Made by a program: the position numbers and the translations under genes | Assembly: GCA_000004985.1 (NCBI GenBank) | Contig: GG738877.1 | Direction: 5' to 3' (one strand) | Length of the DNA: 64,000 bases | Origin: Naegleria gruberi | Lineage: Eukaryota | The notes under the pieces: generated by a model | Databases searched by the model: none | What the model was told of the DNA's origin: nothing | What the model saw: the letters and a program-made list of their open reading frames with translations, nothing else | In this document: piece by piece, positions 34,092-58,591 of the stretch | Position numbering within the stretch: position 1 is the stretch's first letter | Layout of the letters: each line of letters opens with the position of its first letter

Positions 34092-34162
34092 TGCGTCGAC
34101 CGGGAATTGAACCCGGGTCACGGCGATGGCAACGCCGTATTCTACCACTAAACCATCGACGC
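34092..34162 (-). tRNA. tRNA-Gly (anticodon GCC)
   Basis: The reverse complement GCGTCGATGGTTTAGTGGTAGAATACGGCGTTGCCATCGCCGTGACCCGGGTTCAATTCCCGGTCGACGCA folds as a cloverleaf. The anticodon loop is TTGCCAT and the T-loop is GGTTCAATTCC. Confidence 0.9.
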
Positions 34163-34360: not shown

Positions 34361-35260
34361 ATGGCAGCACAACAACAATTTTCTTATGGAGTGTGGTCCC
34401 TGATATTTTCCATGTTGGAACCTTTTGATAAGAGATCTAATGAAGAGAATTTAATAATGGAAAATATTAAGAGTTGGACTTGTTGTAGGAGCCGATCAAG
34501 ATCAATTCATGATGGTTTGAAATATGGAATAACAAGATTGGATTTGTCGGGATGTGTTTCTTTGCCGAGGAAAAAGATGGTTGCTCGTGCAATTAATCAA
34601 ATTGTGAATGCTAATTCCGTTACTAGTAATGGAGTAATGATAAAGACTTATGAGAGATGCTCATGGAATGATGAAGCCTTGATCAATAGTAGTGATTTGC
34701 TTAGGATGGAATTAGAGAGACAGGACAAGATTTGTGAATTATTGGTAAAATATTTAATTGAAAACTTTGCTTGTTTGACAGAATTGAACTTGAATGGTTT
34801 GCATCGATTAAGACAAGATCAATTGGAGAGTATTAGTTTTAATGAACTAAAAAGTCTATCAATTAGCCATTGTAGAAATGTGAAACAATTAAATCTAGAC
34901 AAATTTGGAAAATTGGAAAGGATTTCAATTCATGTATCACAAATTGAGTTGAGAATTAACTTGTTGGAGCAGATTGCAAACAAAGAGAATGAAAACTCTG
35001 AGAGAATTCCAGAGCTTGTTGTTGATGATGAAGGAGGATATGAGGTGATTATTAGAAATTGGTTGAGTCAAGCAACAATTCCCATCCATATATATATTGA
35101 TTATTCTTACAGGACAATTGATTTGGAACGAGTGTGCGAACGTTCAAGGGATGTTAGTATGATTAAACTTATATTCGCAGGAAAGGCATTGGAAAACGAA
35201 AGGTACTTGGTGGATTACAGCATTACCAAGGGCACAACCTTGCATTATGTTAAACCTTGA
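34361..35260 (+). CDS. Leucine-rich-repeat protein with a C-terminal ubiquitin-like domain (possible F-box-like N-terminus)
   Basis: LRR segments (LTELNLNGLHRLRQDQLESISFNELKSLSISHCRNVKQLNLDKFGKLERISIH). The C-terminal UBL IKLIFAGKALENERYLVDYSITKGTTLHYV resembles ubiquitin [29 protein letters not shown]. Confidence 0.55.
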   Translation: MAAQQQFSYGVWSLIFSMLEPFDKRSNEENLIMENIKSWTCCRSRSRSIHDGLKYGITRLDLSGCVSLPRKKMVARAINQIVNANSVTSNGVMIKTYERCSWNDEALINSSDLLRMELERQDKICELLVKYLIENFACLTELNLNGLHRLRQDQLESISFNELKSLSISHCRNVKQLNLDKFGKLERISIHVSQIELRINLLEQIANKENENSERIPELVVDDEGGYEVIIRNWLSQATIPIHIYIDYSYRTIDLERVCERSRDVSMIKLIFAGKALENERYLVDYSITKGTTLHYVKP

Positions 35261-35456: not shown

Positions 35457-35672
35457 CTAATTTTCATTTGAATCTTCTACTTCTTCAGCACCTTCGGAAT
35501 TATCATCATCAAATTCCTCTTCAGAATCATCATATTCCGAAGTTAAATATTTTTCTTCCCACTTTTTGAAAAGTTCTTGATTGGTGGCTAGCAATTCCAA
35601 CATTTCTTCAATAGAGAGTGCTGGTTGGCTCATCACATATTCCTCCGTGAGTGGTTGTTTGGAATTTTGCAT
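35457..35672 (-). CDS. Small acidic hypothetical protein (71 aa). It may be an exon of a larger gene
   Basis: ORF only, with an E/D-rich tail. Confidence 0.25.
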   Translation of the reverse strand: MQNSKQPLTEEYVMSQPALSIEEMLELLATNQELFKKWEEKYLTSEYDDSEEEFDDDNSEGAEEVEDSNEN

Positions 35673-35888
35673 TTTTTTTTGAATTTTAAAGTTTCAATTA
35701 ATTGTTGAAGAATTTCTAATGCGGAATCTCAATAAGAAAGTTCTTCTTTAGAAACTATTTATTGTATTAATGTGTCATCATGAGTAAGATTTCGATAACT
35801 TAACATTGTAACAGTGAACTTTCTAAAAATAAAGGTCAAAAAAAATACTCAACTTAATTGTATTTGCAGAGATTGAACAGTTTACAAA

Positions 35889-36350
35889 ATGATGCAAATT
35901 TTTATTAAAACTCTCACAGGCAAGACAATTACTTTGCAAGTAGAGTCAATCAACCAAACAATAGAAAATATCAAATCCAAAGTTCAAGACAAGGAAGGAA
36001 TTTTAACAGATTACAAACTCTTCTTTGCAGGTCAACCAGTACATGATGGAATGCTAACAGATTACAATATTCAGAATGATTCAACTCTGCATTTAGTGTC
36101 AGGATTGAGAGGTGGTGTTCAAATACTTGTCAAGACATTGACTGGTAAAATTCTCACTTTGGAGGTTGAATCGAATGACACTATTGGAAATGTTAAATTA
36201 AAGATTCAAGATAAGGAAAATATTCCACCAGATCAACAACGAATTATATTTGCTGGTAAGGAATTGCAGGATGGAATCACCTTGTTGGATTCTAATGTTA
36301 TTCAAAAAGATTCCAATCTTCATTTGATTGTTAAGGCTAAAGGTGGCTAA
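35889..36350 (+). CDS. Tandem di-ubiquitin-like protein: two divergent ubiquitin folds (each ~76 aa). The first ends LRGG and the second ends KGG immediately before the stop
   Basis: Unit 1 is [48 protein letters not shown]...[12 protein letters not shown]. Unit 2 is [77 protein letters not shown]. Confidence 0.8.
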
Positions 36351-36465: not shown

Positions 36466-36585
36466 GGCTACGGCCATATCACGATGAATGCACCTCATCC
36501 CGTCCGATTTGAGAAGTTAAGCATCGTAGAGCCACATCAGTACTGAGGTTGGAGACAACTTGGGAACCTGTGGTGCTGTAGTCTT
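36466..36585 (+). rRNA. 5S ribosomal RNA gene (copy 1)
   Basis: GGCTACGGCCATATCACG...CCCGTCCGATTTGAGAAGTTAAGC...GTACTGAGGTTGGAGAC...CTTGGGAA...GTGCTGTAGTC followed by TTTT. The 5'/3' ends pair to form helix I. Confidence 0.9.
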
Positions 36586-36699: not shown

Positions 36700-37232
36700 T
36701 TAGAAAGCATTAATCAACTTTTTAGCTTCAGAATCAGCAGATGGACTTTGTCTTTCATTAGCAACCTTCATAATAAGAGTCAAATTGCAATCCAAAGTGA
36801 CAACCAAATCAGTACCATTAACCTTGTAAGAATATCCAAGGAAACCAGAAGATTCCTTACTATCAGCATTGTGGACAACTCTGAAAATCAATTTTTCCAA
36901 TCCCATGAAAGCGTCCTTACAATCAGGATCCTTGATGAAAACCTTGGCAATTTCACTCATCTCAATCTTGGACTTTCAGTTAAGAATTTGATGCAATTAT
37001 TCAACAAGGTATCTTCAGCAAATCTATCACCATACTTGTATTTGGTTTCAGTTGGCAATGCAGCAAGAGAAGCCCAATCCAACAAGATGATCATCTTTGA
37101 ATTGACTTGTTGAAGATTCTTAGTAGCAGGAACAATACGATTGTTGAATAATTCACGAACCACCTTCTTGAATGCCAAACCACTTCCACACATGTTTTCA
37201 TTGAATAATTCTTCGTGAGTTTGTTGAGTCAT
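36700..37232 (-). CDS. Hypothetical small protein encoded by two abutting ORFs (36957..37232 and 36700..36960) offset by -1. Function unknown
   Basis: Both ORFs have coding-like composition. The junction is AGATGAGTG (stop overlapping ATG). The short A3 run upstream could hide a 1-nt deletion. Confidence 0.35.
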
Positions 37233-38695: not shown

Positions 38696-38815
38696 GGCTA
38701 CGGCCATATCACGATGAATGCACCTCATCCCGTCCGATTTGAGAAGTTAAGCATCGTCGAGCCACATCAGTACTGAGGTTGGAGACAACTTGGGAACCTG
38801 TGGTGCTGTAGTCTT
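38696..38815 (+). rRNA. 5S ribosomal RNA gene (copy 2)
   Basis: Identical to copy 1 except for one position (A/C). It shares the upstream AAATTAAGG motif and the downstream T-run. Confidence 0.9.
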
Positions 38816-38963: not shown

Positions 38964-39160
38964 ACATCTTTCTCGGCCAATTGGCTTTGATCGAGTGTAG
39001 TATCTGTTCTTTTCAGTTTAATAGCTGAAAGCAGCCCACGGGTTGCAATTACTATTAACTCAATTTTTTGTAGGGTCCAGAGTTGTGCTTGATTGCACAC
39101 TTTGGTTGGTTTCAATCAGACATTGCACTGTCCGTCAGAATTGGAGCTATCCCACTCTAT
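38964..39160 (+). ncRNA. U2 spliceosomal snRNA
   Basis: ATCTTTCTCGGCCAATTGGCTTTGATCGAGTGTAGTATCTGTTCTTTTCAGTTTAATAGCTGAAAG matches the conserved U2 5' end. It contains the GUGUAGUA branch-point-binding sequence, stem IIa and the Sm site AATTTTTTG (~39063), followed by two 3' stem-loops. The 3' end is approximate. Confidence 0.75.
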
Positions 39161-51555: not shown

Positions 51556-51768
51556 AATTTAAATAAAATTGCGTGATGAAAATTGAGTTGCAATTTTTTT
51601 TTAATTTGTAAACACGTGTTTTGCTTTGCCGCTTAAATTCGGAATCAACTCTAGAATAAAGTGATTGCAAGAGCTATTAAGGCTAGATGCAACTTCCTCG
51701 TTCAAGAGTTTCGAAAATAGAATGAAATTTTTGCTTCATATTGCTAATATTTTCAAAATGGATAAGAT

Positions 51769-51840
51769 TCCCGTGTAGTCCAATGGCTAGGATACCTGGC
51801 TTTCACCCAGGAGGTCCGGGTTCAATTCCCGGCATGGGAG
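51769..51840 (+). tRNA. tRNA-Glu (anticodon TTC)
   Basis: TCCCGTGTAGTCCAATGGCTAGGATACCTGGCTTTCACCCAGGAGGTCCGGGTTCAATTCCCGGCATGGGAG. The anticodon loop is CTTTCAC and the arms are canonical. Confidence 0.9.
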
Positions 51841-52170
51841 AATTGTTTTTATGTTTGCCCAAACCAATATTGACAAGACCAAAGTCATCTCTCTTTCATA
51901 TTTGGCTTTTTTAATCAATTTTTCTATTCAATAGAAAAAAAAATCAAAGAACCTTTTATTTACGAAGTTCCTTCTTGTTCGTGCATTTTACTTTTTCTTT
52001 AGGCTGTTGTAGTTTCATCATAAAATCCTCATCATCATCGCCTCGGCAAAGAAAACTATTAGAATAGATTCGGAATGATATCGTTTACTCCTACAGGTAT
52101 TTTGGGTAGGTTCTTCTACTAGTATTATCATCATCATCATTGTTTTCATCATCAATAATTATTATTATTT

Positions 52171-57619: not shown

Positions 57620-58520
57620 TGTGGTGGTGGTAAATGTGTTAAAAGGAAAGTGTTGAGAGCAATATAAAAATCTATCAATGTGAAATTTCACAGTAGTGGA
57701 GGTTGGATTATAGTAGTGCAAATATATAATTTAGCAGCTATCTAGCAAGAGGTGAATGGTGAGTGGAAAGAGGCGTATCTAATCAATAGAAAGAGAAAAT
57801 GGAGGAAAATAACGTTGTTTACACAAGTCAAGATTCAATATATGATTTTACAAAAATTACTATTAAGCTGATGATGAATAGTCCTTTGATGATTATTCAA
57901 TAATCTACACTACAAGTAGGTTATTACAGATGATTAATTCGCACTTGTTACTATTACTACTCTACTAGTATTATGAGTGATAAACAATGACGAACAAACG
58001 ACAACCAACAACAACAACAATATGAAACAAAAACAGCAGCAACAATCTAGAAGCGCGTTTCTACGAACAACAAAAATGTTTCAGCAGCAAGCAGCGGCGG
58101 TGATGATGATGATGGTGTTGTACAGCAGGACCAAGAGTGTCGTCGTACACGCGAATGTTGGTGATGGTTGGTGGTTTGTTGATATTTTTTTGTGTGATGA
58201 TGAAATGAATTTATTCGGGCTTGGGTTTTTTGTGAGGGTGTTGTTGGAGAGTTGTTTGTTGAGGCGGTCGTTGTCGTTGTACACAACCACAAGAACTGGA
58301 AGGGTAAATGTGTGGTGTTCTTTCTTTTGAGTTGTTGTGGTTTTGGACTTATTGGGGTGTTGAGGAAAATGTAGTGGTAAGTGGTTCAAATATAAATTGT
58401 TTTTTATTGATAATTATATGTAATTTCCAATGGGTTGTTCAGGAAAAAAAAGAGGTTCCTTAGGCATGTAAAGAGGTAAAGAGCCTTAATATGAAAAGAA
58501 TAACAAAGAATTAAAAGAAG

Positions 58521-58591
58521 GGGACCAGTGGGAATCGAACCCACGGCCTCTCGCACCCAAAGCGAGAATCATACCACTAGACCATGGTCCC
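58521..58591 (-). tRNA. tRNA-Pro (anticodon TGG)
   Basis: The reverse complement is GGGACCATGGTCTAGTGGTATGATTCTCGCTTTGGGTGCGAGAGGCCGTGGGTTCGATTCCCACTGGTCCC. The anticodon loop is TTTGGGT. Confidence 0.9.

Follow-up and report, generated by a model that had tools for sequence, protein, structure and literature searches.

A di-ubiquitin-like gene of Naegleria gruberi probably encodes a ubiquitin variant specific to its lineage and not a relative of FAT10 or ISG15

Introduction

What is encoded by a protist gene whose product consists of two divergent ubiquitin units joined head to tail and ends in an exposed Gly-Gly: a two-domain modifier of the FAT10/ISG15 kind, ordinary ubiquitin, or a precursor from which a ubiquitin-like protein (UBL) is released? 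A gene of this type is present in the 64,000-nucleotide stretch of Naegleria gruberi DNA analysed here (contig GG738877.1; the window). Ubiquitin is almost invariant in eukaryotes because the repeats of polyubiquitin genes are homogenised and strongly selected, and ubiquitin copies that lie outside that regime yet remain under selection are raw material for new ubiquitin-like modifiers.

The first-pass annotation of this DNA interpreted the gene as a modifier in the style of FAT10 and ISG15. To our knowledge, FAT10 is restricted to vertebrates. According to a review, the protozoa surveyed to date lack both proteins (PMC7600729). The analysis described here indicates that the gene is probably a lineage-specific variant of ubiquitin rather than a relative of either of them; it falls in a known class, that of ubiquitin-derived variants and tandem UBL genes, and was itself previously uncharacterised.

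The gene and its reading frame

The open reading frame (ORF; Table 1) comprises 153 codons followed by TAA, and its 153-aa product contains two ubiquitin units head to tail, the first running from MMQIF to SGLRGG and the second from VQILV to IVKAKGG, with the stop codon immediately after the last glycine. All 153 residues (153/153) are identical to those of a public N. gruberi 'predicted protein' (XP_002675499, also NAEGRDRAFT_60736 and UniProt D2VJV4), whose gene model has the same start and the same stop. In Pfam, the whole protein matches the ubiquitin-family domain PF00240 twice (E = 1.4e-34), and each unit is also recognised alone, unit 1 with E = 7.3e-14 and 51.7 bits and unit 2 with E = 1.1e-21 and 76.8 bits (cut-off 25.4), so that the two matches are far beyond chance. 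The ORF, the Pfam matches and the gene model agree on the two tandem folds described by the first-pass annotation, and the ends that it gave to the units, LRGG for the first and KAKGG directly at the stop for the second, are those seen in the sequence. This di-ubiquitin ORF is a real Naegleria gene of uncharacterised function; no paper naming it was found when the literature was searched by gene identifier and by the ENA project of its relative (described below).

The frame is closed 5' of the ATG by an in-frame TGA (Table 1), so that no coding exon can lie upstream in this frame; such an exon, joined through an acceptor-like 'tttgcag' motif, had been considered as a candidate and was ruled out by this codon. 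A genetic code of the ciliate type, with TAA read as Gln, was also ruled out, since the organism is N. gruberi, which implies the standard code, and the annotated protein stops at the same GG. Continuation of the ORF beyond the GG was checked as well: the stop after the GG is found both in the relative and in the public model, and the conserved stop, together with the pattern of divergence in the flank and the public gene model, is evidence against an ORF that runs on.

Table 1. Features of the di-ubiquitin-like gene in the window
Feature	Coordinates	Strand	Basis
Di-ubiquitin-like gene, complete ORF	35889..36350	+	ORF list, Pfam, public gene model
Unit 1, residues 1-76	35889..36116	+	Pfam, alignment to ubiquitin
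Internal LRGG, residues 73-76, candidate cleavage site, abutting V77	36105..36116	+	sequence, relative, AlphaFold
Unit 2, residues 77-153	36117..36347	+	Pfam, alignment to ubiquitin
Tail KAKGG and stop (TAA at 36348-36350)	36333..36350	+	sequence, ENA relative
Upstream in-frame TGA, 3' of the conserved tttgcag motif	35874..35876	+	read from sequence; flank kept in relative

Two divergent units derived from ubiquitin

Aligned to ubiquitin, unit 1 is identical at 51 of 74 positions (69%, or 67% over ubiquitin's 76 positions) and unit 2 at 54 of 76 (71%), while identity between the two units is 57%. The first-pass annotation had put the ubiquitin positions conserved in unit 1 at about 55%, which is too low, and it had placed unit 2 nearer to ubiquitin than unit 1, which is right in its direction, although the margin is only slight. 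Identity of both units to human NEDD8 and Arabidopsis RUB1 is 41-49%, and to the single domains of ISG15 and FAT10 it is 18-32% (in both cases against reference sequences). When each unit alone was compared with all PDB sequences, solely ubiquitin and polyubiquitin were found among the best 60 matches listed. In these per-unit comparisons ubiquitin is clearly closer than NEDD8, ISG15 or FAT10, confirming a derivation from ubiquitin. The N. fowleri 'polyubiquitin' of PDB entry 5VIX was considered as a possible orthologue and ruled out, because its per-domain scores (about 91 and 104 bits) equal those of human and yeast ubiquitin; judged by these scores, 5VIX stands for the canonical Naegleria ubiquitin.

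In ubiquitin numbering, unit 1 retains F4, K6, L8, K11, T12, T14, K27, K29, K33, H68, V70 and L73-R74-G75-G76, carries the substitutions I44F, K48Q, K63N, R42K, E51H, L71S and R72G, and has gained one residue near position 20 and lost Q40 and R54. Unit 2 retains seven of the seven lysines together with L8, R42, I44 and H68 (V70 is replaced by I), carries F4L, T12I, R54I, S57L and Y59S, and has one extra residue after N60. Its tail, V71-K72-A73-K74-G75-G76, departs from that of ubiquitin by R72K, L73A and R74K and keeps the GG. At position 72, a residue of E1 selectivity that is Ala in NEDD8, unit 1 has G and unit 2 has K. No linker separates the units (SGLRGG is followed directly by VQILV), and unit 2 opens with V and not with M.

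With the polyubiquitin genes (UBI4, UBB and UBC) the Naegleria gene shares ubiquitin-family units joined head to tail without a linker, an LRGG at the boundary and its best matches in sequence and in structure, as would be expected if it were an ordinary polyubiquitin gene supplying ubiquitin. However, it differs from them in having two units only, which are unhomogenised, and in lacking the extra C-terminal residue. The identities of the units to ubiquitin and to each other also speak against this reading, as do the loss of K48 and K63 from unit 1, the VKAKGG tail of unit 2, and 5VIX, which matches each unit no better than human or yeast ubiquitin does. An ordinary polyubiquitin gene is excluded by these features of the sequence, and the first-pass annotation, which had reserved that name for units more than 95% identical to ubiquitin, was correct in setting the gene apart from it.

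The AlphaFold2 model of the 153-aa protein (mean pLDDT 80, pTM 0.49) contains two beta-grasp domains, with a beta-beta-alpha-beta-beta...beta pattern in each half, and pLDDT falls below 50 at residues 73-75 of the junction and at residues 151-153 of the tail. No interface between the two domains is predicted with confidence, and the model suggests that they behave like beads on a string. In a Foldseek comparison with the PDB, the top matches were M1-linked linear chains of two, three and four ubiquitins (E about 1e-20, 66-69% identity, TM up to 0.72), and 33 linear di- and poly-ubiquitin and ubiquitin-derived chains led the ranking (E from 1e-14 to 1e-21, 54-69% identity). ISG15, FAT10 and the tandem UBL of OASL followed from rank 34 onwards (E about 1e-11, 21-23% identity, TM about 0.46), a FAT10 chain (7pyv_C) being found at rank 36 with E = 8.5e-12, 22% identity and a TM of 0.45.

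FAT10 (UBD) resembles the Naegleria protein in its two tandem ubiquitin folds, its size of about 150-165 aa and a C-terminal GG that is free at translation, and ISG15 resembles it in being a two-domain UBL modifier with the conjugation tail on its C-terminal domain. On the other hand, there is no homology to FAT10 beyond the generic UBL fold, identity to ISG15 is 21-32%, the Naegleria tail is IVKAKGG and not LRLRGG, and the Naegleria junction carries an LRGG. In FAT10 the domains are connected by a linker without GG, and activation uses UBA6; ISG15, whose hinge lacks GG, is synthesised in most species with a C-terminal extension, which is then removed. The internal GG has been lost in both. 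By its sequence and predicted structure, the Naegleria gene is ubiquitin-derived and is no relative of FAT10, ISG15 or NEDD8; the FAT10/ISG15 style proposed by the first-pass annotation is not supported, given the low identity of the domains, the rank of their structures behind di-ubiquitin and the intact internal LRGG.

It could still be that the whole 153-aa protein is activated through KAKGG and attached uncleaved, as a two-domain tag analogous, and not homologous, to FAT10 and ISG15, a reading that we consider rather unlikely. It would be in keeping with the C-terminal GG, which is free without any extension as in FAT10, a protein that is mature when translated (PMC7600729), but the low identity to ISG15 and FAT10 and the position of their structures far below di-ubiquitin count against it. 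The selection acting on the two units and the anatomy of the junction, described below, also bear on this reading.

A gene confined to the Naegleria gruberi group

When the 153-aa protein was used unmasked as the query, the homologue search returned about 8000 polyubiquitins, whose multiple repeats score above any true orthologue, and the self-match alone was informative. In a second search, every 5-residue word common to polyubiquitin matches was masked, leaving 64 specific words, and among 5.8 billion proteins two matches were obtained: the N. gruberi protein itself and one ENA metagenome protein (P0121, 154 aa), encoded on a 644-nt contig (L001) from sample ERZ929261. This contig aligns to the window on either side of the gene, and the alignment takes in the beginning of the 5S rRNA gene downstream, which indicates that its source is a Naegleria that is closely related. 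The masked-word search of the 5.8 billion proteins, made at the level of annotated proteins, gave no match from N. fowleri or N. lovaniensis, and an attempt to reach an N. fowleri orthologue by synteny, through the upstream neighbour of 299 aa, led to none, this neighbour being without homologue. Rare words common to some polyubiquitin matches were also considered as a mark of specific relatives and were rejected as scattered single-substitution coincidences.

In JGI metagenomes, a scan with a degenerate DNA pattern for HLIVKAKGG revealed no specific relative; its sole match (Ga0209123_1002381, contig L002, 8244-8269) lies inside a long bacterial repeat-protein ORF unrelated to ubiquitin and was discarded as due to chance. 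A scan of viral contigs gave just generic single ubiquitin units, with identities of at most 72%, and thus nothing that points to an origin from giant viruses. As far as annotated proteins go, the gene appears to be confined to the N. gruberi group, and the best reading is that of a young, lineage-restricted gene derived from polyubiquitin.

Asymmetric selection on the two units

The environmental relative allows the selection on each unit to be compared, in one pair of sequences (window against L001) with few substitutions. In this pair unit 2 is the same at 77 of 77 residues, with no nonsynonymous and two synonymous changes (dN = 0, dS = 0.041), whereas unit 1 has accumulated 11 nonsynonymous and three synonymous changes (dN = dS = 0.064, dN/dS = 1.0) and one in-frame codon indel at R54; the nonsynonymous contrast between the units is significant (Fisher p = 4e-4). 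Divergence is 0.9% in unit 2 but reaches about 10% immediately 3' of the stop, where 11 of the 115 positions of the flank differ. With a neutral divergence of 0.04-0.1, estimated from dS or from the flank, about nine or more replacements would be expected at the approximately 181 nonsynonymous sites of unit 2, and none is found, which argues for strong purifying selection on this unit.

When the changes in unit 1 were polarised with ubiquitin as the outgroup, five were assigned to the N. gruberi branch and three to that of the ENA relative, and three were left unpolarised. They concentrate around positions 44-54, and there are no replacements at residues 7-20 or in the final 11 residues, LRGG included, where codons 71 and 72 have synonymous changes only. 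Both strains have an intact frame, with the two GG motifs and the stop right after the GG preserved, and the sole indel is in frame; the claim that the protein is made with an exposed C-terminal Gly-Gly and no extension is therefore upheld by a stop that is kept in a second strain. In this comparison unit 2 appears to be the selected part, and unit 1 seems to drift at a dN/dS of about 1.

These data also bear on whether the gene is a decaying or non-conjugated duplicate, that is, a polyubiquitin-derived near-pseudogene or a non-covalent UBL (for example, a decoy for ubiquitin receptors or deubiquitinases), which we regard as unlikely. The neutral rate of unit 1 would suit such a duplicate, and so would the presence of the gene in only N. 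gruberi and a single, nearly identical environmental relative, the changes in the tail (positions 71-74), which may be incompatible with an E1, and a degenerate ubiquitin fragment in the upstream neighbour, which suggests local turnover of ubiquitin-derived sequence. However, the lack of replacements in unit 2 is incompatible with a pseudogene, and decay would not have been expected to spare the frame, both GG motifs and the stop in both strains, with an indel that is in frame.

A putative cleavable precursor

The explanation that we tentatively place first is that the gene encodes a lineage-restricted precursor that would be cleaved after LRGG, with unit 2 released as a conjugatable variant of ubiquitin and unit 1 serving as its leader; this stays somewhat short of being probable. 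In this scheme, a polyubiquitin-type repeat in the N. gruberi group would have departed from the concerted evolution of ubiquitin and would now be translated as a 153-aa head-to-tail dimer. A ubiquitin-specific protease (USP) or another deubiquitinase would most likely cut after G76 of the internal LRGG, between this motif and the V that follows it, releasing unit 2 as a 77-residue conjugatable variant whose GG would need no further trimming. Unit 1 would be mainly a leader able to fold and to be recognised by the protease, the rest of its surface being free to drift, and unit 2 would be the functional part, with the L8/I44/H68 patch, R42 and the seven lysines kept, the 54-60 loop remodelled and the tail new.

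The junction is complete, has no linker, is predicted to be disordered and is conserved in the relative even though unit 1 drifts, which favours the precursor model, since this is the layout of polyubiquitin and of the ubiquitin-NEDD8 precursors. The same intact, disordered LRGG is at odds with attachment of the uncleaved protein. Ubiquitin residues 4, 12, 14 and 72 have been reported to determine recognition by USP2 and USP21 (PMC5442100), and three of the four are kept in unit 1 (F4, T12 and T14, position 72 being G), which again is not what a tag that escapes cleavage would predict. Positions 51 and 72 of ubiquitin have also been shown to matter for the cleavage of a ubiquitin-NEDD8 fusion by USP2 (PMC3215745), and unit 1, with G72, S71 and H51, could therefore be processed poorly at the junction. 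This would favour an uncleaved two-domain tag, as S71 and G72 and the lack of E51 could blunt USP cutting (PMC3215745); a conserved C-terminal domain beside a variable N-terminal one would also be expected if the distal domain alone contacted E1 and E2. On the other hand, a dN/dS of about 1 and an indel would be unexpected in a functional N-terminal domain and suit a dispensable leader better. A cleavable precursor, which the first-pass annotation had named as its alternative, fits the anatomy of the gene better than the FAT10/ISG15 analogy does, the cleavage itself being a prediction from sequence.

A precursor of similar layout is known from Chlamydomonas (CrRUB1) and from many plants (AtRUB1), in which ubiquitin and NEDD8 are made head to tail as a 'bi-ubiquitin' of 153 aa and the specific product is the C-terminal UBL (PMC3215745). 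Like these, the Naegleria protein has 153 aa and an N-terminal unit of ubiquitin type, ending in RGG, joined to a distinct C-terminal UBL. The N-terminal unit of CrRUB1 is 97% identical to ubiquitin (PMC3215745), compared with 69% for unit 1, and unit 2 is not a NEDD8, to which it is 41-48% identical, with K72 in place of A72 and L4 in place of K4.

With its I44 patch, R42 and lysines all retained, unit 2 could enter a ubiquitin-type conjugation pathway. An exposed C-terminal GG, flexible here in the model, is a prerequisite for activation by an E1 and for isopeptide attachment to targets. Its altered F4/T12 surface and its tail at positions 71-74 are expected to change its handling by E1 and by deubiquitinases. 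From what is generally known of the recognition of ubiquitin by Uba1, R54I, L73A and K72 in unit 2 could weaken activation by E1. No E1, E2 or deubiquitinase domain was found in the ORFs of at least 200 aa of the window; eukaryotic genes are not expected to cluster, and this result is uninformative. A further reading, which we hold to be improbable, is that unit 2, with or without unit 1, is a covalent modifier specific to Naegleria, that is, a recent ubiquitin paralogue with its own E1/E2 preference, conferred by the altered tail (V71, K72, A73 and K74) and the F4/T12 surface, and resistant to generic deubiquitinases. If this were true, the gene would be a young natural case of a new ubiquitin-like conjugation channel splitting from ubiquitin.

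A precedent for variants from a ubiquitin repeat outside the canonical set is the human UBBP4, a diverged polyubiquitin-like locus whose ubiquitin variants become attached to particular targets, with outcomes other than degradation (PMC7066184). In UBBP4 and its product UbKEKS, as in the Naegleria gene, a ubiquitin-derived repeat gene encodes variant units that keep the GG, although UbKEKS is only four positions away from ubiquitin whereas the Naegleria units differ at 22-25 positions, in addition to indels, including in the tail. What the Naegleria gene adds is a constrained unit 2, with a non-canonical KAKGG tail, beside a unit 1 that appears to drift. If unit 2 is conjugated, this free-living protist would offer a tractable model for the birth of a modifier, and 'GG-remnant' ubiquitinomes could conceal variant modifiers, as has been argued for human UbKEKS; if it is not, the gene would be another diverged polyubiquitin-like gene of a kind found in many protist and plant genomes.

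Genomic neighbourhood

The gene immediately upstream (NAEGRDRAFT_50147, 34361-35260, + strand) encodes a protein of 299 aa with no homologue among 5.8 billion proteins. Its last 30 or so residues (35165-35251) are 62% identical to residues 42-70 of ubiquitin and end in LHYVKP without GG, and the first half of the ubiquitin fold is not detectable; judging from this alignment, the C-terminus looks like a captured or decayed ubiquitin fragment. Between this gene and the di-ubiquitin gene there is an ORF of 71 aa on the minus strand (35457-35672), which has a very acidic C-terminus (…SEYDDSEEEFDDDNSEGAEEVEDSNEN) and no Pfam match. Downstream, a minus-strand gene (36700-37232) is divided into two abutting ORFs of 91 and 86 aa in different frames, which meet at ESPRLR followed by a stop and at IEMSEIAK, neither of them with a Pfam match; an assembly error could account for the split, as could a frameshift or a very short intron. 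At 963-2289, four mutually overlapping ORFs of 364-420 aa occupy both strands, that on the plus strand having no Pfam match, an arrangement that points to repetitive or low-complexity sequence and not to four genes.

The window is also rich in small-RNA genes. A first 5S rRNA gene (36466-36584, +) begins 115 nt 3' of the di-ubiquitin stop on the same strand, an arrangement kept in the contig of the relative, and is followed by a further 5S rRNA gene (38696-38814, +) and a U2 snRNA gene (38964-39154, +). In addition, there are three tRNA genes, for Gly-GCC (34092-34162, -), Glu-TTC (51768-51841, +) and Pro-TGG (58520-58591, -).
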